The position numbers and the translations under genes are program-made. A stretch of 64,000 nucleotides of DNA from an uncultured Alphaproteobacteria bacterium (GTDB lineage Bacteria; Pseudomonadota; Alphaproteobacteria; RF32; CAG-239). Under the pieces are notes generated by a model. The model saw nothing but the letters and a program-made list of their open reading frames with translations. It was not told the origin of the DNA and ran no database searches. Below, one piece after another: positions 28,779-55,815 of this stretch (positions are counted from its first letter, which is position 1; every line of letters starts with the position of its first letter). The stretch spans positions 2,503 to 66,502 of the forward strand of contig CALXTI010000006.1 of NCBI GenBank assembly GCA_944391395.1, written 5' to 3'.

Positions 28779-28859
28779 TAAGTGTTTTGTTAAGCTTGAT
28801 TATTTAATTTGCAACCTATATGATTGGAAAATATTATGTGTGACAAAGGGGATTTGAAC

Positions 28860-29603
28860 ATGAATAAAAAACTATTTTTACTGGTCTGCTTAGCGGGCAT
28901 GGCAGGCTGCGCACACCAAAACTCCACATACACAGCGCCATGCACGGGGCCAAATTGTCCGGCTCGGGTTGTCGCCGCGGAGGATGTTGTGCTGCCGCCG
29001 GACGATTATATCTGCCAAACAACAAATGATCCGGAATTATGTCCGTCCGACCCGTTTGTCAATTATACCGGGACCGCTGCCGACTTCAGAGAATACGGCG
29101 AAAGAACGCCGCGTGATTCAATGATTTCGCAGGCAGGCGCCGGAAACAACCTTGCCGCATCCATTCCGCCATCAATCGAAGATGAAGTTATTGAATACGA
29201 AGAACAAATCAATCCGGAAGGGGATTTGACGGCAATCGCCGAAGAAACCGTCGAAGAAGATGTTTCCGAAACGGATGAGGACGGCGTAAGCGGCAACATA
29301 GAAGATGAAGAGGGCATGGAAGATATTGAAGATCCCGTCCAAGACTGGCTGGCCGAAGAAGGGCAAAATTTAAAGGCCTTGTTGACGGATTGGAGCGAAA
29401 AGTCAGGTTGGCGCCTGGTTTGGAACACAAACCGCAATTATGTTTTGAGCGCCGGCGCCATGTTCAGAGGACGCTTTGCCGATGTCAGCTCGGCTTTAAT
29501 CAGAGCTTTTGCCAGAGCGCGCCCGGCACCGATTGCAACGTTTTATAAAGGAAACCGTGTTTTAGTGGTTGAAACAATGGAGGATGAGAATGCGTATGAA
29601 TAA
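28860..29603 (+). CDS. pilL: PilL-like lipoprotein with a TcpQ-like C-terminal domain
   Basis: It has a lipoprotein signal MNKKLFLLVCLAGMAGC with a GGGGA RBS upstream. It has an acidic linker and a C-terminal GWRLVWNTNRNYVL... motif typical of the TcpQ/PilL family. The longer ORF in the track starts at 28824. Confidence 0.55.
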   Translation: MNKKLFLLVCLAGMAGCAHQNSTYTAPCTGPNCPARVVAAEDVVLPPDDYICQTTNDPELCPSDPFVNYTGTAADFREYGERTPRDSMISQAGAGNNLAASIPPSIEDEVIEYEEQINPEGDLTAIAEETVEEDVSETDEDGVSGNIEDEEGMEDIEDPVQDWLAEEGQNLKALLTDWSEKSGWRLVWNTNRNYVLSAGAMFRGRFADVSSALIRAFARARPAPIATFYKGNRVLVVETMEDENAYE

Positions 29604-31242
29604 AATTATCAATTTGGCTATTGGAACGACCGTAGCCGGGCTGATGGCAGCCTGCTCCGTTTCAACCGATTTGGACGCAACATTGGAGCGCGAGGTTGAA
29701 AACACGGTCGCGCTAAAAGAAGAGGCAAAAATGCCGACCACGCCCGCACCGACGGACGTTATCCGAGTAAAAGACGATATCTGGCTCGGCGATACCAGTG
29801 AGGTTGAATATGAAGGCGACCCCGTGCCGAGTTATCTGGAAGCTGCCGACGGTATCACCTTAATCAGCAACCGACCGATTACTTTGTTTGAAATCGGCGA
29901 TATGATTAATAAAATCACATCGTTGTCCGTTCGTTACGATCAGGAACTGGAAGACGATTCCAAAAGCCTGGCCGACGGCAACGCCCCGAGTTTGGAAACA
30001 ATCGGCGCCCAGTGGACGGACAGCACGAAAATGTTGGTTTCATACAAAGGTCCTTTGAGCGGACTTTTGGATGAAGTATCCAACCGTTTCGGCATTTGGT
30101 GGAAATATGAAAACAAACAAATTTATTTCTACAAATACATCACCAAAACCTTTGTATTGTACACTCTTCCGACCAAACCGACCTTATCGGTCAACGTCGG
30201 CGGTTCGTCCACCGAAGGTAGTGCCGGCTCTTCATCGGTATCTTTAACAAATACCGCCAATATTGATTTGTGGACCAACGTTGAGGCTTCCATCAAATCA
30301 ATGATCAGCGACGGCGCACAATTAACTATGGACCAATCCAACGGTACCATTACCTTAACCGGCACACCGACCGACATTCGCAAAGTGGCAAAATTTGTTA
30401 ACGAACAAAATGTCCGGCTTTCGCGCCAAGTCGCCATCAGCGTTAAGGTTCTGCAGGTATCGATTACCGACAGCGACCAATACGGCTTGAACTTGGGCGC
30501 CGTGTTTAACGGTACCAGAGCCGGCGGCGGTATCAGCGGTAGTCACATTACTGACTTGGGATTTGCCAGCCCTGGTAGCGGTTTGGGTGCTGAAATTACT
30601 GAAAACTTGTCAATGGCGATTGTTTCCGGTAGCTGGACGCTGCAAGGCGCTATTCAAGCTTTGTCTGAACAAGGTACGACCACGTTGGTTACCAGCGGTA
30701 CGGTAACGACCCTGAACAACAAGCCTGCGCCTATTCAAGTGGTTCGGACGCAGAATTATATTTCCGAAATCACCAAAACAAACTCCGGCAGCGACGGCAG
30801 TTATTATGACCTGTCAACGGAAACCGAGGAAATTGAAACAGGCTTTACGCTTGATGTTTTGCCGAGAATTTTGGAACACGGACGCTTAATGTTGATGTTT
30901 AACATGACGCTTTCGGACTTAATCGAATTGGAAAGAGTTGACTTGGGCGGTTCCGGTAGCGGTGAAGGTTCGGAAGAAATCAGCGGTCAATATATTCAAA
31001 ACCCGATTATCGAAACTCGCGGCTTTACGCAGGAAGTTGCGTTAAAATCCGGCGAAACATTGATTTTGAGCGGTTATGAACGTGTTGAAAACACCGCCAA
31101 CAAGTCAGGCGTCGGCTCGGCTGACAATTCTCTCTTGGGCGGCACGGCGACGGCTGAAAAAACCAGAAGTATTTTGGTGATTATGCTGACACCTGTCGTG
31201 TTAGACACGCCGTTGTCACCGGAATCAAGAATGACTTACTAA
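29569..31242 (+). CDS. pilN: Type IVb pilus secretin, a lipoprotein of the PilN/BfpB/TcpC type
   Basis: It has a lipobox (GLMAAC). The C-terminal secretin domain reads TLVTSGTVTTLNNKPAPIQVV...VLPRILEHGRLMLMFNMTLSDL. The probable start is the internal Met at about 29596. Confidence 0.8.
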   Translation: MKQWRMRMRMNKIINLAIGTTVAGLMAACSVSTDLDATLEREVENTVALKEEAKMPTTPAPTDVIRVKDDIWLGDTSEVEYEGDPVPSYLEAADGITLISNRPITLFEIGDMINKITSLSVRYDQELEDDSKSLADGNAPSLETIGAQWTDSTKMLVSYKGPLSGLLDEVSNRFGIWWKYENKQIYFYKYITKTFVLYTLPTKPTLSVNVGGSSTEGSAGSSSVSLTNTANIDLWTNVEASIKSMISDGAQLTMDQSNGTITLTGTPTDIRKVAKFVNEQNVRLSRQVAISVKVLQVSITDSDQYGLNLGAVFNGTRAGGGISGSHITDLGFASPGSGLGAEITENLSMAIVSGSWTLQGAIQALSEQGTTTLVTSGTVTTLNNKPAPIQVVRTQNYISEITKTNSGSDGSYYDLSTETEEIETGFTLDVLPRILEHGRLMLMFNMTLSDLIELERVDLGGSGSGEGSEEISGQYIQNPIIETRGFTQEVALKSGETLILSGYERVENTANKSGVGSADNSLLGGTATAEKTRSILVIMLTPVVLDTPLSPESRMTY

Positions 31243-31257
31243 CGGAAAGGAAAAACC

Positions 31258-32553
31258 GTGCTGGAAGATGCTAATTTAGATGAAAACTATTCCGGGGGAG
31301 AAAATAATTCCCCGGAAAGAGATGAAGCCAAAGCCTGGGGCACCAGCTTTAATATCGGCAGTGTGGCTTATGCTGCCAGCCTCTTCTGGCAGCCTTTGCA
31401 AAACCGGGATGATCCGTTTACGGAAATTATCGAGGCATCGGAAAATGTCTTGGAAGGGGCTGATTTATTCTGCCTAAAACCCGGAAAATCACCGCAATTC
31501 GGCCTTTGTGTTTCTTACCAAGGATATAAGAAAAAAATGCCGGCGGCGGCGGTTATGGTTGCAACGGCTTTATCCGACCGTTCGTCCTTTTTGGCGGTAT
31601 TCAAAGTAAACAACGGATGGTGGTATGTCTGCGCCAGAAACGATATCATCCTTTCCGACGGTGATATGCTGTTTTTGAATGAAGAAGATGCCAAAGAACA
31701 GTTTATGTCGATGTTGGCCGTTCCGGATTGGGGACGCAAAATCGCTCCGGCGGAATGGGGAATCGACGAAACCGAAGAAATGTCCCTTGAGGACATGGTC
31801 GACAAAGGCGCCACGGCTTATTTACAAAAAATACGCGCTTTGCGCGGTCCGAAACTGTTTGCCGTTGTGGCCGCCATTGCCGTTATCGCCATATGGCTGG
31901 TTTCGACATTAATCAATTCGATTTTCTTAGCACCGCCCAAAAAACCAATTATTGCACCGGTTCCGGTCAAAAAAATCGAACAGGCGCCACCACCGCCCGA
32001 ACCCAAACCCTGGGAAAGCATTCCTGATCCGCAGGCCATGCTGGATAAATGCTTTCAGGCAACTCAAGATGTGGTCAGCATTGTTGTCCCGGGATGGAAA
32101 ATAGAAGGCATCACCTGCACTTCAAGCGGTTTGGTGACTTCATGGAAACGTGAAATCGGGCGACTTTCATGGATGGATCACGCTCTTGATAATTCAGGCG
32201 TCACATTTTCCAGCCGGTCGATTTCCGACCGCGGCGACAGCGTCGTTGTTTCCGTCCCGATTACGGATGTGAAGACATTAAATTCTCCGCCGGAGAAAAA
32301 CGGGGTGGATTTGGTCAACATGCTTAACGATTTGTTCCAGGCTTTCCAGATGAATATAAATATGCGAACGGAATCTTGGACCTCTCCGCAAAAAAATGTC
32401 TATCGTTCGGTCAAGTTTACTTTCACATCCAATCATGATCCGAAACAATGGAAAGATTTGTTAATGAATTTTTCAGGACTTAAGATTAATACTATTAAAT
32501 ATGATATAAACAGCCATAACTGGTATTACGAAGGAGCGATATATGTATTATAA
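31258..32553 (+). CDS. Bitopic inner-membrane pilus-assembly protein, PilO/BfpC-like (431 aa)
   Basis: It has a central TM helix LFAVVAAIAVIAIWLVSTLI. It lies between the secretin and ATPase genes, as pilO does in R64/ICE pil operons. Confidence 0.4.
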   Translation: MLEDANLDENYSGGENNSPERDEAKAWGTSFNIGSVAYAASLFWQPLQNRDDPFTEIIEASENVLEGADLFCLKPGKSPQFGLCVSYQGYKKKMPAAAVMVATALSDRSSFLAVFKVNNGWWYVCARNDIILSDGDMLFLNEEDAKEQFMSMLAVPDWGRKIAPAEWGIDETEEMSLEDMVDKGATAYLQKIRALRGPKLFAVVAAIAVIAIWLVSTLINSIFLAPPKKPIIAPVPVKKIEQAPPPPEPKPWESIPDPQAMLDKCFQATQDVVSIVVPGWKIEGITCTSSGLVTSWKREIGRLSWMDHALDNSGVTFSSRSISDRGDSVVVSVPITDVKTLNSPPEKNGVDLVNMLNDLFQAFQMNINMRTESWTSPQKNVYRSVKFTFTSNHDPKQWKDLLMNFSGLKINTIKYDINSHNWYYEGAIYVL

Positions 32554-34075
32554 GCTTTTATATAAAAATTTACTCACTGCGGCTTTGGTTTCGTTTATCA
32601 CTTTAAATGCAGCCAAACCCTGTGAAGCTCAAGGCGTTGTCTCTCTGGTTGAAGACAATGAAACGGCTGCACCCGAAAATAATGCCAACGAGGCTGCATT
32701 GCCTTCGGCTGATTTGTCCATGGATACGGAATTGCCGAACACATTGCCGAACGACGATGTTATTCCTTTGGACAATGCCGCTTTGATTTCACCGGCACCG
32801 GCAACCGAAGCTCCGGCTCCGGTTCCGGCTCCTGCGGTACAACCGGCAACGGAAAATGCTGCTGCCGGCACAAATGCCGCACCGGCTCCGGATAGTTTTA
32901 ACCAGGACATGGATTTTTCTTTGGGCATTGAAAATGATGTTCCTGCCGCTCCCGCCGTCCAGCCCGGCGCCGCAAATACAACAAAAAACAATCCTTTAAT
33001 GGCTCCTGCCGCGGAACAAAAAGCACCGGCACCTAAAAGCATTGAGGAATACGGTGATGACGTATTGGCAAAAATTGACAATGATTTGTTCAGCCAAATG
33101 TCTGATATTGAAAAACAGACGACTTTGCTGACTTTGGAACTGCGGCGTGAAAAAATCCGCAATGAAATCGAAGCTATCAGAGCTCAACGCGAAAGAGCCG
33201 AAGAAGAAAAAATCGCAGCGGAAGAAGAAAAGAAACGCAAAGAGTTTGAGTGGAAAAAAGAACAAGAAGCAAAAGTGTTAAAAGAACAGCAGCTCTTGAA
33301 GGAAAAAGAAATAGAGTTGGAAAAGCTCAAACAAAAGAAAGTGTTAAATGCTTATATGAACCGCATGTTGGAAGAAAATCAGAAATGGATTGCCGAAAAC
33401 GCGGAAATCTATAAACAAATGCGCCAGGTTGAGGCCGACAGAAAATCTCTGGTCGAGAATTTCAAACAAAAACTTGAAGCGTTAAACACTTTGTCAAACA
33501 AAGCCATTCAGTCAGCCAACAACGCCAAAAGCAACCATGACCGCACATTGGCAAGTTTGACCGCGCAAAACATTCAGTTAAAGAAACGGATTGAAGCCGA
33601 AGCTCTGGCTGCCAAAAACCGTCAGGAGAACCCCTTCGGCAATGAAGGCGGTGAAGGCGGCAACAAAAATGCAGCCGTAACGACTTCCATTGACGCAAAA
33701 ATCGTTCCGATAAACATATCCAAAGAATACGCCATTATGGACATTACCGGTCAAGGTGATGACTTGGTGGCCAAACTGATTAACAAAGAAGGTGAATCTT
33801 TCTTGGCACGAAAAGGAACTATTTTACAAACCGGTCATGCCATTGAAGCCATTACGCCAAATTATATTCAATTTGATCGCAACGGCTTGAAAGATTATCT
33901 ATATACAAGCGGCAGTGCCATGACCATGGAACCGGAAAACATGGAAGGTACGGCCACGACAAACGCCAAAGCGCCAAGAAAACCGGCGGCTGCCGCAGCA
34001 CCTAAAAAAGCCTCAAGCGGAATCGCTTCCGAGCGCGGTGTTCCTTCTTTGGGAGCCGGTATGTTTGTGAAATAA
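32543..34075 (+). CDS. Secreted Ala/Pro-rich coiled-coil protein with a C-terminal PilP-like domain (510 aa)
   Basis: It has a signal peptide and a long charged K/E-rich coiled coil. The C-terminal segment AKIVPINISKEYAIMDITGQGDDLVAKLINKEGESFLARKGTIL resembles the PilP/GspC HR domain. Confidence 0.4.
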   Translation: MYYKLLYKNLLTAALVSFITLNAAKPCEAQGVVSLVEDNETAAPENNANEAALPSADLSMDTELPNTLPNDDVIPLDNAALISPAPATEAPAPVPAPAVQPATENAAAGTNAAPAPDSFNQDMDFSLGIENDVPAAPAVQPGAANTTKNNPLMAPAAEQKAPAPKSIEEYGDDVLAKIDNDLFSQMSDIEKQTTLLTLELRREKIRNEIEAIRAQRERAEEEKIAAEEEKKRKEFEWKKEQEAKVLKEQQLLKEKEIELEKLKQKKVLNAYMNRMLEENQKWIAENAEIYKQMRQVEADRKSLVENFKQKLEALNTLSNKAIQSANNAKSNHDRTLASLTAQNIQLKKRIEAEALAAKNRQENPFGNEGGEGGNKNAAVTTSIDAKIVPINISKEYAIMDITGQGDDLVAKLINKEGESFLARKGTILQTGHAIEAITPNYIQFDRNGLKDYLYTSGSAMTMEPENMEGTATTNAKAPRKPAAAAAPKKASSGIASERGVPSLGAGMFVK

Positions 34076-34090
34076 CAGGGTTGTCGAAAA

Positions 34091-35755
34091 ATGGCTACTC
34101 AGACAGAAAACAGCAAAGAAAATAAGACTGGAGGCTCTGCGCCTTCCGGTTCTTATTTGGCTGAAAGCGAAGCAGAACAGGGGAAAAAGAAAAACATACT
34201 GGAAGAATTGTTTGCCAATAACAATAGACTTCTGACTTTGCCCGGTTCCGACATTTCCATCAATGATGAAACAAGACGTCTGGTGGCTTTATTTTCCGAC
34301 GGCACTTACTTGGTGTCAAAAGATCATCGTTTTGACGGTCCGGTTTACAACTTCGAAAAAACCATTAAAAGAAGAAAAATTCCGATTAAAGCTCCGGAAT
34401 ATGTCAGTCAAAATGAGATTACCGCCATTTATGCTTTTGCCGAGCGCGGTTCGGGTGTGGCTAACGTCGACAGCGAAACCCACGATCAGATGCAGATGCA
34501 AATCGACTTTATTAATGTCATTGCCCGCGCTTCTGCACAAAAAGTTTCTGATATTCACGTTATTGTTGCGGATTCGGCAGTCATTATGTTCCGTGTCAAC
34601 GGCATGATGCAGCGACAAATGGAATATAACAAGGAATGGGGCGAAGCTTTTGTCCGCGCCGCGTTTGCTTCCGCCGATATTTCCGATTCAAACTATGCGC
34701 AAAATGAATTTCAGGGCGCACAAAAATTAGGCGCCACGCCATTGCGCGGTTCAAACGGCAAATTGATGCTGCCGCACAATGTGTTGGCCATTCGTTTGCA
34801 ATTCAACCCGATTGCGTTTGGTTCGCAATATCTGGTCATGCGTTTGTTGTACGCCGATGACAATCCGGACGGCAGTTCGGATTTAAAATCTTTGGGCTTT
34901 GGCGAACGGGAAGAAAACTTATTTTACCGTTTACGCGCCGTGCCGGTCGGATTGAATATCGTTGCGGGACCAACGGGTTCCGGCAAATCCACAACCTTGC
35001 AAAGAAACATGATTAAGCTCTTGCAAGAAAAAAATTATGAAATTAACTTAATTACGGTGGAAGATCCGCCGGAATACCCTATTCCGGGAGCGCGGCAAAT
35101 GCCGGTGACCAACGCCAACACCGAAGAGGAAAAAGAGGCCGAATTTACAAAAGCCTTGAACGCGGCTTTGCGTTCCGACCCGGACGTGATGATGGTTGGT
35201 GAGATTCGTTCGCTTTCCGCCGCCGAATTGACATTTAAAGGCGCATTGTCAGGCCACGGCGTATGGTCCACATTGCACGCCAACTCAGCACCGGCCATTA
35301 TTACCCGTTTGCGCGATATGGGTATTCAATCTTACATGTTGGGCGATCCGGAATTGATTAAAGGACTCATCTCGCAACGTCTGTTCCGCAAGCTTTGTCC
35401 TTATTGCCGGAAATCTATTAAAGAACGTATGAACGACCCTTCTTTTGAACGTTTAAAAACCGCGTTAGGCGATTTTGGCATTGAAAACACTTTCGTCCGC
35501 GGCGAAGGTTGCAAATATTGCGGTTATAAAGGTTTTAGCGGCCGTATGTCGGTGCCGGAAATTATTTTGCCGGACGCCATGTTCCTGCAGCTGATGATAA
35601 GCGGCGACACCAAACGCGCCATCGACTATTGGACCAGCGAACTGGACGGCCGGCCTTTGCGTGATGCGGCTTTGGAAAGAATGCTAAAAGGGTATATTGA
35701 TTTAGATGAAGTTGAACGCTGGTGCGGATTGCTTGATCAGCGTCCGGTTTACTAG
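34091..35755 (+). CDS. pilQ: Type IV pilus assembly ATPase of the GspE/PilB family (PilQ-like)
   Basis: Walker A is GPTGSGKSTT, and there is a tetracysteine CPYC...CKYCGYKG motif. It is 554 aa. Confidence 0.85.
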   Translation: MATQTENSKENKTGGSAPSGSYLAESEAEQGKKKNILEELFANNNRLLTLPGSDISINDETRRLVALFSDGTYLVSKDHRFDGPVYNFEKTIKRRKIPIKAPEYVSQNEITAIYAFAERGSGVANVDSETHDQMQMQIDFINVIARASAQKVSDIHVIVADSAVIMFRVNGMMQRQMEYNKEWGEAFVRAAFASADISDSNYAQNEFQGAQKLGATPLRGSNGKLMLPHNVLAIRLQFNPIAFGSQYLVMRLLYADDNPDGSSDLKSLGFGEREENLFYRLRAVPVGLNIVAGPTGSGKSTTLQRNMIKLLQEKNYEINLITVEDPPEYPIPGARQMPVTNANTEEEKEAEFTKALNAALRSDPDVMMVGEIRSLSAAELTFKGALSGHGVWSTLHANSAPAIITRLRDMGIQSYMLGDPELIKGLISQRLFRKLCPYCRKSIKERMNDPSFERLKTALGDFGIENTFVRGEGCKYCGYKGFSGRMSVPEIILPDAMFLQLMISGDTKRAIDYWTSELDGRPLRDAALERMLKGYIDLDEVERWCGLLDQRPVY

Positions 35756-35768
35756 GAGTTTGTAAATT

Positions 35769-36887
35769 ATGGCAGAAAAAAAACGAGCAACATCCTTTAA
35801 CAAAGCAATGCGTTCCTTAAACTCTATTGAAGTTTATTACGCAAAGATGATTTGTAATTTTTCCAATGAAACCAGATTGAAAATTTATCGTAAACTGGCC
35901 GCTTTGATGCGCAACCGATTTTCTTTGATGGATGCTTTGGATATGTTGCACGACGGTATCACCAACGGCGGTAAAAATCCAAGCGAGCCGATGGCCATCG
36001 CTCTTGCCAGCTGGGGACGCGCCTTGCAAAACGGTTTGCCTTTTTCCGATGCGCTTAAAGGATGGGCGCCGAGCCGCGAACGACTGATGCTTTCCGTGGG
36101 TGATGTTTCCGATTTGGAAAGTGCTTTGTTAAACCTGATTAAAGTAACCGAGGGTTCTACCAAAATGGTTCGCCCGATTATCGGCGCCATATCATATCCG
36201 TCATTTTTGTTTATGATGTCTATTGTCATTATTTGGGCTATCGGCGCTTACATGGTGCCGCCGATGATTGACGCTGCTCCGGATGTGCGTTGGGTCGGAA
36301 CCGCCCGTACATTGGTCGATATTTCCGACTGGATTAGGGTTAACTGGCTGGTCGCTTTTGTTTCTTTCCCGATTGTTATGCTTGTGGTTTATGTTACAAT
36401 CGGTATTTGGACCGGACCGATACGCGCCGCCATCGACAATATTCCGCCATGGTCGTTGTATAAGGTTTTTATCGGCATTACTTGGTTGCTGGCTTTGTCG
36501 GCTTTGGTGAAAGGCGGTGTGCCGGTTTCAACGGCTTTACAATCTTTGCGGCGAGATTCAAACGCTTATCTTAAAGAACGTATCGATAAAACGCTTGCTT
36601 TCATTAAAAACGGTGATAACCTCGGACAAGCTTTGATGAAAACCGGCTTGAATTTTCCGGATAAAGAAATCATTGCAGACTTAAAAATTTATTCGGAATT
36701 GGATAACTTTGAAGAAGCTCTGGAAAAACTTGCCGACGATTGGTTAGAAGAATCCGTTTACATGATTGAACAAAAAGCTTCTTTGTTAAACATGGCCGCT
36801 TTGCTGGCGGTGGCCGGCGTTATCGCCTGGGCGGTGTTCGGCGTGTTTGAAATGCAAGATCAAATCACCAGCGCCATGGGAGGTTAA
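35769..36887 (+). CDS. pilR: Pilus platform protein of the GspF/PilC family (PilR-like)
   Basis: It is a polytopic membrane protein of the size and layout expected for the GspF family. It lies immediately after the ATPase gene. Confidence 0.8.
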   Translation: MAEKKRATSFNKAMRSLNSIEVYYAKMICNFSNETRLKIYRKLAALMRNRFSLMDALDMLHDGITNGGKNPSEPMAIALASWGRALQNGLPFSDALKGWAPSRERLMLSVGDVSDLESALLNLIKVTEGSTKMVRPIIGAISYPSFLFMMSIVIIWAIGAYMVPPMIDAAPDVRWVGTARTLVDISDWIRVNWLVAFVSFPIVMLVVYVTIGIWTGPIRAAIDNIPPWSLYKVFIGITWLLALSALVKGGVPVSTALQSLRRDSNAYLKERIDKTLAFIKNGDNLGQALMKTGLNFPDKEIIADLKIYSELDNFEEALEKLADDWLEESVYMIEQKASLLNMAALLAVAGVIAWAVFGVFEMQDQITSAMGG

Positions 36888-36888
36888 A

Positions 36889-37482
36889 ATGCAAATCCGT
36901 TTGGCGGATAAATTAAAGCAAAGTTCCGCAATGCTCCTGAATTTTTATCATGGTAAATATTTTTGGAGCTTTGCGGCAACGTTGGTCATCTTGTCGGTCG
37001 TGGTTTTGTTTGTGTGTCTGCCGGGACAAGACACGCGTTTTAACGCCGCACATCAAGAGTTATCCGTTTTGGTAAAGAACATTCGCAATCATTATAAAGT
37101 TCGGCCTGATTATTGGGGTTTGAACACCTCTAATGCCATCAAAAACAACTTGGTGCCGGTAGATATGCAACATGATGATAAAATCATCAGCGCTATCGGT
37201 CGGGAAATTATTCTCGGGCAAGATATAAACGGCAGCATGGTCATGCCGGGACAACGCAACTTTATGATAACGATACCTAATTTAAGCAAAGCCGCCTGTA
37301 TAGAGATGATTTCCAGACCTTTCAGTCAAGAGGAGCATTTAGGGTTGTTGAAAGTATCTCTTTTGGCTGCGGACAATTTGCAAGAATTTGAATGGGGCGG
37401 TAAACTTTCTTTGCCCATAGAAAAAAAGACGGCAAAGGAGTTTTGCAAAAATCAAAACACTATCAGTTGGATATTTGAATAA
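36889..37482 (+). CDS. Candidate type IVb prepilin (PilS-like) or small membrane protein
   Basis: It has a GGGAGG RBS. A charged ~22-aa leader ends in Gly (..NFYHG) and is followed by the hydrophobic helix KYFWSFAATLVILSVVVLFV. It occupies the position of pilS after pilR. The in-frame ORF extends upstream to 36847. Confidence 0.3.
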   Translation: MQIRLADKLKQSSAMLLNFYHGKYFWSFAATLVILSVVVLFVCLPGQDTRFNAAHQELSVLVKNIRNHYKVRPDYWGLNTSNAIKNNLVPVDMQHDDKIISAIGREIILGQDINGSMVMPGQRNFMITIPNLSKAACIEMISRPFSQEEHLGLLKVSLLAADNLQEFEWGGKLSLPIEKKTAKEFCKNQNTISWIFE

Positions 37483-37544: not shown

Positions 37545-38504
37545 TTAAATATCTTCAAACAGCGGTCGTCCCTGTGCCATACGAGTCATTTGCGTTTCAA
37601 TCGGCGTTGCCAAGTTTAATTTACCGCTTTTGATAATGCTTCTGACCTGGCATCCTTTAGTGGTATCCGGATTGGCAAACAGAAAACGCAATACCGGCGT
37701 TTTATGACCAACACCACGCAAAGACTGATGCAACACGGCAAGCATGCCGCGGGACAATAAATCATACGCCAGAGATTCGCTCATATCCGCCGATGATGCA
37801 TATTTCACGACCGAATTTATGGCATCCGGAATATTATTGGCGTGAATCGTGGATAAGACAAGGTGGCCGGAAGTCGCGGCACGCAGGCACTCGCTGGCGG
37901 CATCCGGCGTACGGATCTCGCCGACCATAATATAACGCGGTTTGGAACGCAAGGCGGATTTTAAGGATTCGCCCCAGTTATTATTAATCGGTTGTGTTTG
38001 TTTGCATAAACCAAAAGAACCGTTTAACGCGGTATATTCACCGTCAAGCGGCATTTCGGACGGGTCTTCAATCGTATAGGCAAAGCCGCCTTCCCGAACC
38101 AAAAATTCTTTTAACAATGCCGAGATGGATGTTGTTTTACCCGAACCTGTCGCACCGGCCCACAAAATCAGCCCCGAGGCTTTGCATAAGCCGTTAAGAT
38201 ACGTCGCCAATTCTTTGCGATAGCCCAAGGTGCTAAAATCCGGCACAACTTTCGGCATTTTACGAATACAGTATTGAACGCCGGTGATGGTCATGGTTCT
38301 TTCTACACGGAAAAACACATTTTCATATAATACCGAATAACTGGAATTTCCTTCATACGAATCTTCCACCAATTTATAAAATTCCTCAAAATCGGAGGCC
38401 ACAAATATCTGCAATCCGTTTTCCGTTAAATCATCTGGGATGTATGCCACTTTTTCCGGTGTGATGTAAATATCCGAGAAAAATATATCATTGATTTTGA
38501 CCAT
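37545..38504 (-). CDS. pilT: PilT/PilU-family pilus retraction ATPase
   Basis: Walker A is GATGSGKTTSISALL. It is 319 aa with a PilT-type core. Confidence 0.85.
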   Translation of the reverse strand: MVKINDIFFSDIYITPEKVAYIPDDLTENGLQIFVASDFEEFYKLVEDSYEGNSSYSVLYENVFFRVERTMTITGVQYCIRKMPKVVPDFSTLGYRKELATYLNGLCKASGLILWAGATGSGKTTSISALLKEFLVREGGFAYTIEDPSEMPLDGEYTALNGSFGLCKQTQPINNNWGESLKSALRSKPRYIMVGEIRTPDAASECLRAATSGHLVLSTIHANNIPDAINSVVKYASSADMSESLAYDLLSRGMLAVLHQSLRGVGHKTPVLRFLFANPDTTKGCQVRSIIKSGKLNLATPIETQMTRMAQGRPLFEDI

Positions 38505-51438: not shown

Positions 51439-52074
51439 ATGATAAATCAGACGGCAAATTATCCGATTTTAATCTCTGAAAACAATGTTTCGGCAAATGT
51501 GCCGGCAGAAGTTGAGGCAATGGTTGTTCAGACCGAAGACTTGTCGGTTGTTTCTCCGCACGGTGAAGAAATTTTTTACAAGAGTGCTGAATTCTGGGTT
51601 GGTTTTGCTTTTATTTTGGTCGTGGTCTTTCTTTTCAAGCCTCTGAAGAAAGCTATCAAATCTATGCTTTTGAAACGCCGCGGTGAAATTATCGACCAAA
51701 TTTCACAAGCAGAACAATTACGCGATGACGCCCAAAAACTTTTAGCTCAATATGAAAAAAAGTTTTTACACGCCAAAGATGAAGCTGATGAAATTTTAAA
51801 ACGTTCGGAAAAAGAAATTGAAACGCTGAAAAACGAAGAATTGCAAAAGTTAGAACAAGATCTGGAAATCCGTCGCAAAGAAGTTGAAAACAGCATCAAT
51901 CTTTCGATTGAAAAAGTTAAAAACGAAATTAATCAAAAAATTGCCGAACTGACCATGCAAAAGGTCAAAAATCATATTTCTTCCGATTTAAGCGAAAAAG
52001 ATCATGAAGTTATAATTGATAAATCTTTGGATGAGCTTAATCATAAAATTTTGAAAATCATTTCGACTAAATAA
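51439..52074 (+). CDS. atpF: F0F1 ATP synthase subunit b
   Basis: It has a TM helix and a charged coiled-coil stalk. It is the second b-type gene. Confidence 0.75.
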   Translation: MINQTANYPILISENNVSANVPAEVEAMVVQTEDLSVVSPHGEEIFYKSAEFWVGFAFILVVVFLFKPLKKAIKSMLLKRRGEIIDQISQAEQLRDDAQKLLAQYEKKFLHAKDEADEILKRSEKEIETLKNEELQKLEQDLEIRRKEVENSINLSIEKVKNEINQKIAELTMQKVKNHISSDLSEKDHEVIIDKSLDELNHKILKIISTK

Positions 52075-52164
52075 AATAATAAATTCGAATTTTATAGTTT
52101 GGAATGACACCAATGTGGGCATCCGCCCGCCGATTGTGATTTATCCCCAAAAGACTCTTTAAAA

Positions 52165-52191
52165 TTGCAAAAAAAAAAAACGGTTTAGAAT
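52165..52191 (+). promoter_or_regulatory. Candidate sigma70-type promoter for the pilin-like gene, with an A12 homopolymer in the spacer
   Basis: The -35-like element is ttgcaa at 52165-52170 and the -10-like element is tagaat at 52186-52191. The spacer is 15 nt and consists mostly of the A12 run at 52169-52180. Confidence 0.3.
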
Positions 52192-52234
52192 ATCGGGAAA
52201 ATAGATATTTTTTTGCTTTTTTTAGGAGAAAATT

Positions 52235-52855
52235 ATGCGGGAAAATGGTAGAAGTATGATAGAGATGCTCGGGGTACTCGCTATCGTTGGGGTGTTGAGC
52301 GTTGGGGCGATGTCGGGTTACGCAAAAGCCATGCTTAAGTATAAGCTCAACAAGCAGACTGAGCAAATCGGCAGCATCCTGGATTATGCTTCGCTATATT
52401 CCGAAGAATTGCGGGAATCCCGTGTATGGTATGCCGCCGAGCTGATGAACAAACTTGGCGCCATTCCGCCAGAAATGATTGATGAAAATGACAGAGAATA
52501 TATTTATGACGTCTTCGGCAACAAAATTCTCCTCACATTCACAGGCAGTAGCGGCGAACATTATAAAGGTATGAAAATAAACATCGGCGATAGCACTCGG
52601 GATATTTGCATCAACTTATTTCAAATGGCAAAACTCCGTAGCGGTTTAATATGGCAGACCCTGTTTACGCGCTCAACCGAAGATGTTTCAGGCGAATTTG
52701 CCAACCGGGTTTTTGGCGATGCTTATTGCCCAAGAGTTAGAACCTGTCTTAAAGATTTAACCATGGACAAGATGGACGAGCTTTGCAGCGCCTGCACCGG
52801 TACAAACGAGTGTAGTTTCTCTATCTTATGGGATTATCAGGGAAGTAAAAATTAA
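52235..52855 (+). CDS. Type IV pilin or pseudopilin-like protein (206 aa)
   Basis: It has a class III prepilin N-terminus: a short leader MRENG, then RSMIEMLGVLAIVGVLSV with Glu at +5. There are several C-terminal cysteines (CPRVRTC, CSACTGTNEC). The RBS is AGGAG. Confidence 0.6.
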   Translation: MRENGRSMIEMLGVLAIVGVLSVGAMSGYAKAMLKYKLNKQTEQIGSILDYASLYSEELRESRVWYAAELMNKLGAIPPEMIDENDREYIYDVFGNKILLTFTGSSGEHYKGMKINIGDSTRDICINLFQMAKLRSGLIWQTLFTRSTEDVSGEFANRVFGDAYCPRVRTCLKDLTMDKMDELCSACTGTNECSFSILWDYQGSKN

Positions 52856-52880
52856 TACAAACCCACAAAACAATAAGACA

Positions 52881-52910
52881 CTACAAAAATCTCCCGTAAA
52901 AACGGGAGAT
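52881..52910. terminator. Hairpin terminator between the pilin-like gene (+) and ftsH (-)
   Basis: The hairpin is atctcccgt-aaaa-acgggagat. On the minus strand it is followed by a T-run. Confidence 0.5.
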
Positions 52911-52936
52911 TAAACATAAAGAAAATAATTTTTCAT

Positions 52937-54802
52937 TTACACTTCCGGCACTGATGCTTTGGTGCGTTTTTCCTCGCTGACCGGCGTTTCATTATCGCGA
53001 TTGATTTTTTCGCCCGCTAACACGGCTTTGATTTCATCACCGGTTAAGGTTTCATATTCAATCAAAGCTTCGGCCAAAGTTTCCCAATCTTTGCGCTTTT
53101 CTTTCAAAATCTGGGTGGCGTTGTGGTAGCCGTCAAGCACCAAACGTTTGATTTCGGCATCCACCAGACGCGCCGTTTCATCGCTCATGTTTTTGTTTTG
53201 CGTCACGGAACGACCCAAAAACACTTCACCGGAATTTTCCGAATATAAAACCGGCCCCAACGTGTCGCTCATGCCCCATTCGGTTACCATGGAACGCGCC
53301 AAGTTGGTGGCGGCGTTGATGTCCGCCGAAGCGCCTGAGGTAACTTGGTCATAACCGAATTTTAATTCTTCGGCCACTCGGCCGCCCATCAAAATGGTCA
53401 GTCTCGAAAGCATTTTGGCACGGGTGTAAGAATATTGATCTTTTTCCGGCAACTGCTGTACCATGCCTAAAGCCCGACCTCTCGGAATAATCGTCGCTTT
53501 ATGTATCGGGTCGGTTTCCTTAACATTGAGCGAACAAATGGCATGACCGGCTTCGTGATATGCCGTCAGCATTTTTTCTTTTTCATCCATGGCCATGGAT
53601 TTGCGTTCGTTGCCCATCAACACTTTGTCTTTAGCCTCATCGAAATCCTGCGCGGTTACTTTACGCTTGTTCTTGCGCGCCGCCAACAAAGCCGCCTCAT
53701 TAACCAAATTGGCCAAATCAGCGCCGGAAAAGCCCGGCGTGCCGCGAGCCACTACCGCCAGATTAACATCTTTGGCCAACGGAACTTTACGAACATGAAC
53801 TTTCAAAATTTCTTCACGACCTTTAATGTCCGGATTGCTGACCGTTACCTGCCGGTCAAAACGCCCCGGCCGTAAAAGCGCCGGGTCCAGAACATCGGGT
53901 CGGTTGGTGGCGGCAATCAAGATTACATTTTCATTTTCATCAAAGCCGTCCATTTCCACCAACAGTTGGTTTAAGGTTTGTTCCCGTTCGTCGTTGCCGC
54001 CGCCCAAACCGGCGCCGCGATGCCGCCCGACGGCGTCAATCTCGTCAATAAACAACAGGCAAGGCGCATTTTTCTTGGCTTGGGCAAACATGTCGCGTAC
54101 GCGCGACGCCCCGACGCCGACAAACATTTCCACAAAATCCGAACCGGAAATGGAAAAAAACGGCACATCAGCCTCACCGGCAACGGCTTTTGCCAACAAG
54201 GTTTTACCGGTGCCCGGAGGGCCTACCAACAAAACACCTTTCGGGATTCTGCCGCCCAAACGCGAAAATTTTTGCGGATCTTTTAAGAAATCAACAACTT
54301 CTTCCAACTCTTGTTTGGATTCATCAGCGCCGGCGACATCGGCAAAAGTAACTTTTTTGTTGTTTTCCACCAATCGGGCGCGCGATTTGCCAAAGCTCAA
54401 AGCCTTGTTGTTGCCGGAGTTGGCCTGACGCATAAAGAAAATCCAGACGCCGACCAAAAGCAGCATCGGAAACCACGAAATAACAATGCCCCAAAACGTG
54501 CTGCCGGAAGTATCAATCGGCTTTGCCGTTACTCTCACGCCGTTTTGACGCAATGTTTCAATCATGGTCGGGTCGTTGGGCGCATAAGTATAAAACTCCC
54601 GTCCGTCAACTGTCGTCCCATAGACATCGGGGCCGGAAACCGTAACTTCAACAATCTTTTTGTTTTCGGCTTCGTTCATAAAATCCGAAAACGCCAAGGT
54701 GTCCGTATTGGCATTTTGACGTTTCGTGCCAACCGCACTTAAAAAAGAAGTCAGGACAAAAAAGATTAAAACCCAAACAAGAAAATTTCTACCAAATTTC
54801 AT
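52937..54802 (-). CDS. ftsH: ATP-dependent zinc metalloprotease FtsH
   Basis: The AAA Walker A is GPPGTGKT, the second region of homology is present, and the zinc site is HEAGH. Confidence 0.95.
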
Positions 54803-54897: not shown

Positions 54898-55815
54898 TTA
54901 AGCATTACGCAGCTTGAAAACGCCGTTTTCATAACCTTGAATTGTTTTGTCGGTATCCGCCCTTTCCAGCCGGCATTCGGCATACGCCACATATTCTTTT
55001 TCGCGCTCAATCCCCAGATAATGGCGACCAAGCTTTTTGGCCGCGACGGCAGTGGTACCCGACCCCAAAAACGGGTCAAAAACCAAATCTCCGGGATTGC
55101 TGGAAGCCAATATCAGTTTGGCAATAAGTTTTTCCGGCTTTTGCGTCGGGTGCGGCGTGTTTTCAGGCATCGACCAAAAAGGAATCGAGATGTCCGTCCA
55201 AATGTTGGAAGGATGCGTTAAACGAATTTTCTCACCTTCTTTGGTCTCCCAGTCTTTAGGCAGGCCTTTGGCATCACGGTACGGCGCAATCACTTTTCGC
55301 ATAATCTTTACAGCATCCAGATTAAAAGTGTAAACCTCCGATTTGGTAAAAAACCATATGTCTTCAAGGCAATTTTTCCAATTGTTTAAGGCGCCGCGCC
55401 CTTTTTCCCGCTCCCAGGAAATCCGGTTTTGCAAAATAAAATATTTTCCGGCTATTTCGGGAATCGCCAAAGATGTTTTCCAATCCGCGCATATATAAAC
55501 ACTGGCATTGTCTTTTAACAGGCGCACGGTTTTTTTGAGCCAGGAATCAAGCCATTTTTGATATTGCTTAAAATCCATGGCCTTAAATTGCTTGCCAGCA
55601 AACACTTTGGTTAAGTTGTAAGGAGGGTCGACAATCATTAAATCCACACAGCCGTCGGGAAGATAATTTAATGCCCGCAAAGCATCTTGCCAGATTATCT
55701 TGTCCCTGATTTCTTCCGGAGCCGCTTTGGCCGAAAGTTTGACCGCGCGGGCGGCAAAATGATTTTGTTGCCGCAGATTGAGTTCTAAAGTTTGATTGCG
55801 GGGAGCTTTGGCCAC
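54898..55815 (-). CDS. Beta-class N6-adenine (or N4-cytosine) DNA methyltransferase, CcrM-like, with no adjacent restriction enzyme gene
   Basis: Motif IV (DPPYNL) is near the N-terminus and motif I (FDPFLGSGTTAVAA) is C-terminal to it. This is the beta-class order seen in CcrM and M.HinfI. Confidence 0.75.
   Translation of the reverse strand: MAKAPRNQTLELNLRQQNHFAARAVKLSAKAAPEEIRDKIIWQDALRALNYLPDGCVDLMIVDPPYNLTKVFAGKQFKAMDFKQYQKWLDSWLKKTVRLLKDNASVYICADWKTSLAIPEIAGKYFILQNRISWEREKGRGALNNWKNCLEDIWFFTKSEVYTFNLDAVKIMRKVIAPYRDAKGLPKDWETKEGEKIRLTHPSNIWTDISIPFWSMPENTPHPTQKPEKLIAKLILASSNPGDLVFDPFLGSGTTAVAAKKLGRHYLGIEREKEYVAYAECRLERADTDKTIQGYENGVFKLRNA

Follow-up and report, generated by a model that had tools for sequence, protein, structure and literature searches.

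The DNA considered here is a stretch of 64,000 nucleotides (nt) from an uncultured Alphaproteobacteria bacterium (contig CALXTI010000006.1), hereafter called the window, and our subject is a prepilin gene within it together with the promoter-like sequence in front of that gene, the spacer of which is dominated by a run of twelve adenines (A12). An earlier note on this DNA had described the gene as an orphan, encoding a pilin of 206 amino acids (aa) and standing alone between the atp operon and ftsH, and had proposed that slipped-strand changes in the A tract alter its expression. The prepilin-like open reading frame (ORF), its N-terminal motif and its solitary site can all be read directly from the window, and the TTGCAA, A12 and TAGAAT elements are present as described there, with a spacer of 15 nt between TTGCAA and TAGAAT (Table 1). 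The orphan status has to be given up, as the gene belongs to a dispersed family with a common promoter module.

Table 1. Position and strand of the features discussed, in window coordinates
Feature	Position	Strand	Remarks
Type IV secretion system	1172-25669		several unusual parts
Type IVb pilus machinery operon (putative partner)	28824-37482	+	Pfam and NCBIfam matches
Bundlin-like ORF	36889-37482	+	last gene of the operon; homologues with PF05307 or PF08805 (bundlin/PilS-like domain)
PilT-family ATPase	37545-38504	-	PF00437 and TIGR01420, both below equivalog cut-off; beside the machinery operon
atpF	51439-52074		neighbour of the prepilin gene
Conserved upstream block (TTGTGATTTATCCCCAAAAGACTCTTTAAAA)	52134-52164	+	homology with paralogues starts here
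GACTC (GANTC, CcrM-type)	52153-52157	+	fixed offset, 12 nt upstream of TTGC
-35-like TTGCAA	52165-52170	+	TTGC is the conserved anchor in both promoter sub-types
A12 homopolymer	52169-52180	+	in promoter spacer; proposed slipped-strand element
CGGTT	52181-52185	+	non-A remainder of spacer
-10-like TAGAAT	52186-52191	+	TAGAAT/TATAAT/TAAAAT conserved across the family
5' untranslated region (presumed)	52192-52234	+	T7 runs at 52208-52214 and 52217-52223; ribosome-binding site AGGAGA at 52224-52229
Prepilin gene	52235-52855	+	206 aa; leader MRENG, mature start RSMIE..., variable centre, six invariant Cys
GC-rich hairpin	52888-52911	-	between the convergent prepilin and ftsH genes; scores as ftsH terminator
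ftsH	52937-54802		convergent with the prepilin gene
CcrM-like methylase gene	54898-55815

The prepilin gene is isolated between atpF and the convergent ftsH, and its start codon lies 43 nt past the -10-like element. T runs equivalent to the two T7 runs of the presumed 5' untranslated region vary in length between paralogues. An Rfam scan of 51900-53000 gave no match, hence no known RNA element in the pilin leader. The hairpin downstream of the gene may end pilin transcription as well as that of ftsH; it lies outside the module shared by the paralogues, because their downstream flanks are unrelated.

The prepilin and its predicted fold

The N-terminus of the protein reads MRENG followed by RSMIEMLGVLAIVGVLSVGA, which places the cleavage Gly at residue 5, not 6, and Glu10 at position +5 of the presumed mature protein, with a hydrophobic helix after it. 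The ORF thus has the parts of a class III signal, namely a short basic leader running to Gly, Glu at +5 and about 20 hydrophobic residues, and no other canonical prepilin N-terminus occurs in the window. In an alignment of 44 homologues the first ~50 residues are near-invariant and the middle of the protein is highly variable; residues E10, L12, V14-I17, G19, L21 and S22 vary little or not at all, and the six cysteines of the C-terminal half (125, 165, 171, 184, 187 and 193) are invariant throughout. The mature protein has 201 aa and begins with Arg rather than Phe.

Curated sequence models match the pilin at its N-terminus alone. Both the Pfam model N_methyl (PF07963; 15.6 bits, cut-off 21.2) and TIGR02532 (11.8 bits, cut-off 16.3) scored sub-threshold. 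These N-methylation models were made around GFxxxE pilins, and the low scores therefore weaken membership of the type IV pilins without excluding it. Likewise, a PDB sequence-profile search returned sub-threshold matches only, all to the N-terminal helix of other pilins. An AlphaFold2 model built with the 44 homologues was confident except in the membrane helix (predicted local distance difference test 83, predicted template modelling score 0.78), and presents the predicted pilin fold of a helix at residues 13-54 and an antiparallel beta-sheet of five to six strands. When this model was compared with the PDB by Foldseek, the matches above noise were to type IVb major pilins only: the top eight were all TcpA of Vibrio cholerae, CofA of enterotoxigenic Escherichia coli (ETEC) or the ETEC type IVb pilus, with E values of 2e-5 to 5e-3, template modelling (TM) scores of 0.5-0.63 and probabilities of 0.97-1.0. 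We regard the product of 52235-52855 as a predicted type IVb-class prepilin, the modelled fold of which matches TcpA and CofA.

A dispersed family with a common promoter module

A homology search returned 3,465 family clusters at 90% identity (E<=1e-3), and an exhaustive profile search with clustering at 50% identity returned 351 clusters at E<=1e-30 and 2,307 at E<=1e-10; at least 567 copies were confirmed in species-representative genomes. The best 80 copies come from 14 metagenome-assembled genomes (MAGs) from human, reindeer and roe-deer gut or rumen, with single MAGs contributing 9-15 or more loci. The family is very large, fast-diverging, dispersed and restricted to a clade of uncultured gut Alphaproteobacteria, with dozens of copies per genome. 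Thirteen of the 14 MAGs are labelled Alphaproteobacteria or Proteobacteria. The remaining one, assembly CAVBCV01, is labelled 'Lachnospiraceae bacterium' and holds at least 10 family copies (L028, L035, L036, L049, L050, L065, L069, L073, L079 and L086); its label or binning is probably wrong. Family copies occur singly beside housekeeping genes (pyk, dnaG, rplL, hda, htpG and hipA, with atpF in the window), and the source annotations of the homologues give none of them a name. Many copies were found at contig ends, as is expected if the conserved 5' part disrupts MAG assembly, and the family explains in this way why, in this clade, MAG contigs often break where a pilin gene has its conserved 5' end.

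When the window copy is compared with paralogues in unrelated contexts, the promoter and leader (-100 to -1) are 71-85% identical, as against 12-33% farther upstream and 11-40% downstream; the homology begins about 100 nt before the ATG and ends at the stop codon. Judged from these alignments, each paralogue is a self-contained module of promoter and gene, with about 100 nt of upstream sequence carried along. The promoter plan is GANTC-N7-TTGC-A(n)-N5/7-TAnAAT, and the pattern TTGC-A(>=7)-N-TAnnnT was found in 60 of the 70 copies with 330 nt of upstream sequence. There are two sub-types, one with A(n), CGGTT and TAGAAT (modal n of 12), and the other with A(n), CGCGAGC and TAAAAT (modal n of 10), and both arrangements (A12+5 and A10+7) set the -10 element 17 nt after TTGC. 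Among 75 copies this distance was 17 nt in 54 (72%); the off-mode 28% comprised 12 copies at 16, 3 at 18 and 6 at 13-15. The tract itself ranges from 7 to 13 across the family, with modes at 12 and 10, and mixed lengths occur within every MAG. In the long-leader copies with a resolvable start (n = 23) the start codon lies 31-44 nt past the -10 element. The element looks like a family-specific promoter with its spacing under selection, and since the modal geometry is kept family-wide, tract length would be under stabilising selection as well as mutable.

Among the promoters of the window and of L001-L096, 48 of the 56 unique sequences have a GANTC site 12 nt ahead of TTGC (GACTC in 45 and GAATC in 3). 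The motif is scarce in the window as a whole, with 101 occurrences against about 250 expected, and the window also holds the CcrM-like methylase gene. The site may have a functional role; it could be an epigenetic or cell-cycle input.

Within the window, A12 is the longest homopolymer and the next longest is 8. Runs of A of length 5, 6, 7 and 8 number 152, 67, 24 and 4, there are none of 9-11 and a single one of 12; no run of T exceeds 8, and there are no runs of C or G of 7 or more. A first-order Markov model predicts 16 A runs of at least 8, as opposed to the 5 seen, and long runs are therefore depleted in the genome, making A12 an outlier. A standard sigma-70 scan, which admits spacers of 16-18 nt, did not call the TTGCAA/TAGAAT element because its spacer is 15 nt. 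The unit of TTGC, A tract and TAGAAT is presumably an active promoter.

Several other promoter types were checked by eye at this site and rejected: the GG that a sigma-54 promoter has 12 nt before the GC is missing, the TAAA-N15-GCCGATAA pattern of sigma-28 is not there, and neither are the GGAAC/CGTT elements of extracytoplasmic function (ECF) sigma factors or a CtrA box (TTAA-N7-TTAA). Another possible -10 element, TAAAAT at 52160-52165, was set aside, its best -35 candidate sitting 20 nt off. Elsewhere in the family, locus L047 (about 1190-1310) has an A20 tract with ATATA in place of the TTGC anchor, and is either an extreme tract expansion or a decayed promoter. A second TTGC-A8/9 tract, before a 295-aa ORF (L011-L016), proved to belong to an ordinary TTGAAA-N17-TAGAGT promoter and not to the family module. 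A metagenome scan for TTGC-A8-N0-12-CGGTTTA gave at least 120 stretches, and among those listed there were 8 pure A tracts (A8 or A9), none with a pilin downstream.

The family shows further peculiarities of structure. In many paralogues (L006 (7896), L035, L037, L064, L065, L069, L081, L087, L089 and others) an open leader peptide of 25-85 aa separates the shared promoter from the G/RSMVEML cleavage site, a length unusual even among type IVb pilins. Some of these leaders consist of palindromic DNA repeats such as GACACTCCGGTCAAGCCGGAGTGTGACA, with compensatory changes in the arms, and encode motifs like DTPVKPECD. The first 150 nt of the window gene (52235-52384) are 94% identical to paralogue L002 and 85% identical to the syntenic orthologue L001, as opposed to 97% identity with L001 over the remainder of the gene, a pattern of identities which suggests that the conserved 5' region has undergone gene conversion between paralogues. 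Moreover, four loci (L219, L223, L224 and L236) share pilin gene and promoter with their sister loci and have different upstream flanks between samples; the break falls where the promoter module begins, about 35-45 nt ahead of TTGC, and suggests recombination or module movement at this boundary.

Tract-length variation and the case for switching

Tract length was compared at the same locus across independent metagenomes, between cluster-mates encoding identical or at least 90% identical proteins. At the dnaG-linked paralogue, the promoter of which is the same as that of the window copy from -100 to the -10 element, the tract is A12 in 10 samples and A13 in 2. A 2.6-kb alignment of seven samples at this locus contains 59 substitution columns and two indels, one of which is the tract, and none of the seven other homopolymers of 7 or more varies. 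The other indel is a 12-bp duplication polymorphism, TAACGGAGAAAA, about 110 nt past the pilin stop and before dnaG (L233-L241). The hda-linked paralogue has A12 in two samples and A13 in two (one of these, L010, at a contig end), and the tract is the sole indel in 5.7 kb containing 12 homopolymers. At the rplL-linked paralogue, where the sequences are about 6% divergent, there are two samples with A9 and four with A10. The htpG-linked and hipA-linked paralogues have A10 in 10 of 10 and 2 of 2 samples, respectively, and at the atpF-linked locus the window and its only orthologue found, L001, both have A12.

The tract is therefore polymorphic at three of six loci, and at two of these it is the sole varying homopolymer. 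As at contingency loci, it varies among close relatives more than the controls do, with one comparator (A12) for the window locus itself, and the repeat lies in the spacer of what is, judged by its sequence, a predicted promoter. In consensus sequences the tract appears as the most length-variable site of the compared regions, yet mostly stands at its modal length. The slippage proposal of the earlier note accordingly meets with a divided outcome: tract length does differ among samples at the dnaG, hda and rplL loci, in a conserved promoter-like setting, but the only orthologue of the window gene carries A12 as well. Slipped-strand control of promoter spacing is plausible and partly supported, not proven, and we infer that tract length governs expression.

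A candidate machine for these pilins is encoded in the same window. The machinery operon specifies a TcpQ-like protein, a PilN-family secretin, PilO, a 510-aa unknown protein, an assembly ATPase, a platform protein and the bundlin-like protein, and its gene order is conserved in a distant relative, the bundlin-like proteins of the two being 43% identical. The adjacent PilT-family ATPase is possibly a retraction motor. The distance between the pilin gene and this cluster, put at about 15 kb in the earlier note, measures 14.7 kb. That note had also held that the cluster lacks an unambiguous major pilin, which is fair in spite of the bundlin-like ORF, as the latter has no prepilin motif. Its family has a variable N-terminal anchor and lacks the conserved Gly/Glu5 motif, and hhalign against the pilin family gave a probability of 0.7%; the ORF was rejected as the missing major pilin on these grounds, and the protein is probably pilin-derived and not polymerised. 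Because the bundlin-like gene of the cluster has no prepilin motif, the dispersed family is a likely source of subunits. The idea that the machine uses the window pilin rests on this absence together with the fold class and the sole canonical prepilin N-terminus in the window, and it is a reasonable inference that the family supplies filament subunits to this machinery.

Taken together, these results enabled us to propose a model. Replication slippage would gain or lose single adenines. The -10 element would thereby shift, in distance and in helical phase, relative to the TTGC/-35 region or to an activator site within that region, and transcription of that single paralogue would go up or down. 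As every paralogue has a tract of its own, the result would be a population in which the subset of pilins being expressed keeps shifting. The pilins would be processed by a prepilin peptidase with its gene elsewhere, and polymerised by the PilN/PilO/ATPase/platform type IVb machinery (28.8-37.5 kb). On balance we lean towards this model, in which a dispersed type IVb pilin family, each module with slippage-controlled promoter spacing, is served by the machinery in the window. Its full extension to combinatorial surface variation, with dozens of scattered pilin genes switched independently, possibly gated by CcrM, and feeding one conserved machine with its canonical pilin lost, is a tentative and somewhat doubtful proposal.

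Whether the modal tract length is the active state can be argued both ways. The mode is kept across hundreds of diverged copies and two sub-architectures, which speaks for it. Conversely, a 15-nt spacing is outside the usual sigma-70 range, and the variants between samples at A12 loci are all of +1, giving a spacing of 16. An activator-dependent promoter, with its site in the conserved AGACTCTTTAAAATTGC block, would reconcile the conservation of the modal length with the short spacer, on the pattern of the fim genes of Bordetella.

A number of observations weigh against slippage-controlled spacing as we have outlined it. The short spacer leaves the true -35 element or the sigma factor uncertain, and at the more divergent rplL locus other intergenic homopolymers vary as well. 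The sharply conserved modal length, with 17-nt spacing kept in 72% of copies, in two sub-architectures and in paralogues down to 31-40% identity with the window protein, bespeaks stabilising selection, and the tract could be a fixed structural element. The main rival explanation is that the A tract is a fixed part of the family promoter, whether it acts as a spacer (rigid or bent) or provides a site for a regulator or nucleoid protein, possibly with GANTC, and that the +/-1 variants are noise or decay. The stability of A10 in 12 of 12 samples at the htpG and hipA loci, the A12 of the orthologue L001 and the constant offset of GANTC in 48 of 56 promoters all agree with it. However, a homopolymer of 10-12 is the most mutable filler that a spacer could have, and its retention in hundreds of copies, despite a genome poor in long runs, suggests that mutability is tolerated or selected. 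Moreover, the consensus length differs between hosts at three of six loci while the rest of the promoter stays the same and, at two of them, other homopolymers are fixed. We hold a fixed tract to be rather unlikely on this evidence.

Two further explanations were considered. All tract-length differences are between assembly consensus sequences, all of these come from short-read metagenome assemblies, and the variant L010 lies at a contig end, so that the differences might be sequencing or assembly errors and the 'promoter' irrelevant, the gene being read through from the atp operon; as no terminator is predicted between atpF and the pilin gene, such read-through is possible. We find this very improbable, given that independent assemblies agree (A10 in 10 of 10 and A12 in 10 of 12, which argues for a low error rate), that variants lie inside long contigs, and that the gene keeps its promoter module in many unrelated contexts with no upstream operon. 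Alternatively, the machine in the window might not use the protein as a filament subunit. The protein could be a minor pilin, a tip pilin or a pseudopilin, or the substrate of a different type IV filament, or of a type II secretion system, with its genes elsewhere. Type IVb leaders have 15-30 aa, and the 5 aa of the window copy are short by this measure; in many paralogues, open leaders of 25-85 aa run from an ATG at the same distance past the -10 element. The gene lies outside the biogenesis operon and its paralogues are dispersed, and no prepilin peptidase (A24 motif) was found in the window. The short leader and the lack of a peptidase in the window tell against our model too. There are also weak NCBIfam matches to GspH and ppdD-type models, and one homologue is named PulG in one source. 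These matches are, however, limited to the N-terminal helix (E 0.05-0.17), whereas the modelled globular domain matches TcpA and CofA and no others above noise, and type II secretion or type IVa genes were not found within the window. A mature size of about 200 aa is, furthermore, typical of type IVb major pilins. We therefore judge a pseudopilin or minor pilin improbable, and retain the slippage-controlled type IVb family as our working model.

Apart from the pilus genes, the window contains a type IV secretion system with several unusual parts. It comprises a VirB11-like ATPase, VirB9, two copies of VirB8, VirB4, two proteins full of beta-flower/DUF3659 repeats (a VirB10/TrbI protein of 1,425 aa and another of 1,207 aa) and a VirB2/TrbC-like pilin with a fused collagen-like tail, and several of its large ORFs match nothing in Pfam.

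Relation to known systems

Promoter-repeat phase variation and pilin antigenic variation are both textbook biology, and the known routes to pilin variation are gene conversion, as in Neisseria, and DNA inversion, as in Moraxella and the R64 shufflon. Our literature search found no description of a family such as this one, in which a single genome has dozens of complete type IVb major-pilin genes and each of them a slippage-prone promoter. If the combinatorial extension of our model is true, a Gram-negative commensal would be following a strategy like that of the Vlp lipoproteins of Mycoplasma, and pilin antigenic variation would have a third route beyond gene conversion and DNA inversion. A real switch would imply that a prevalent uncultured gut lineage is under strong pressure to vary a surface filament, be it from immunity, phage or changing receptors. 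The type IVb pilins would also form a large natural library of variants that share one scaffold, and tract length would become a simple sequence marker for pilin expression state, readable from metagenomes.

With TcpA, CofA and BfpA the pilin shares its predicted fold, a mature size of ~200 aa, a non-Phe residue at +1 and C-terminal disulfides, although sequence similarity is undetectable beyond the N-terminal helix. Those pilins are single-copy, encoded within the machinery operon and made with leaders of 15-30 aa, whereas the window pilin has a leader of 5 aa, Arg at +1 and three predicted disulfides. In Neisseria pilE/pilS a type IV major pilin is likewise diversified with its N-terminal helix conserved and its globular part variable, and signs of recombination among copies are common to both systems (in the window, the 94% versus 85% identities of the 5' 150 nt to L002 and L001). 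However, Neisseria has one expressed gene and promoterless, 5'-truncated silent cassettes that act by gene conversion, and here each copy is full length with its own promoter. The thin pilus of R64 and of integrative and conjugative elements (PilL-PilV) has PilN-secretin/PilO/PilQ/PilR-type machinery, as does the window. R64 varies the pilin PilV to change specificity. Site-specific inversion in that shufflon changes the C-terminal part of a single minor pilin, in contrast to the many separate major-pilin-like genes described here, and there is no shufflon or recombinase at the locus.

Simple repeats between -35 and -10 that change spacer length and transcription are also found at hifA/hifB of Haemophilus influenzae (van Ham 1993, cited in PMC11868660) and in the promoter spacers of porA, opc and nadA of Neisseria meningitidis, among the simple sequence repeats of Neisseria (PMC5084427); Haemophilus and Neisseria are the examples that the earlier note had named. 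Each case involves a single locus and a repeat of TA, G or C, unlike a large pilin family with one promoter module.

In the Vlp system a poly(A) tract in the promoter spacer is said to set ON and OFF states by its length, independently for each gene, an observation attributed to Citti and Wise in 1995. The Vlp proteins of Mycoplasma hyorhinis are a multigene surface family with combinatorial expression (PMC4198240, PMC11868660). Like the pilin family, they combine a multigene family of surface proteins, highly conserved 5' regions and promoter spacers that contain a homopolymeric run of A. About seven clustered genes, with an A tract of ~17, encode these lipoproteins in a bacterium that has no cell wall, whereas the pilins would need an assembly machine, are encoded by dozens of copies dispersed among housekeeping genes and have tracts of A10-A12, the switching of which is proposed from comparative sequence data. 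In Bordetella pertussis the subunit genes fim2, fim3 and fimX lie away from the assembly operon and carry poly-C between the activator site and -10, and slippage there changes the fimbrial subunit made. The parallel lies in subunit genes apart from the assembly operon, each with a homopolymer upstream of -10; the differences are chaperone-usher fimbriae, a C tract, dependence on BvgA and a set of only three genes. In its logic, therefore, the pilin family is nearest to Vlp and to Bordetella fim2/fim3, in its protein it is nearest to TcpA and CofA, and in its purpose it resembles pilE/pilS, although the means differ.

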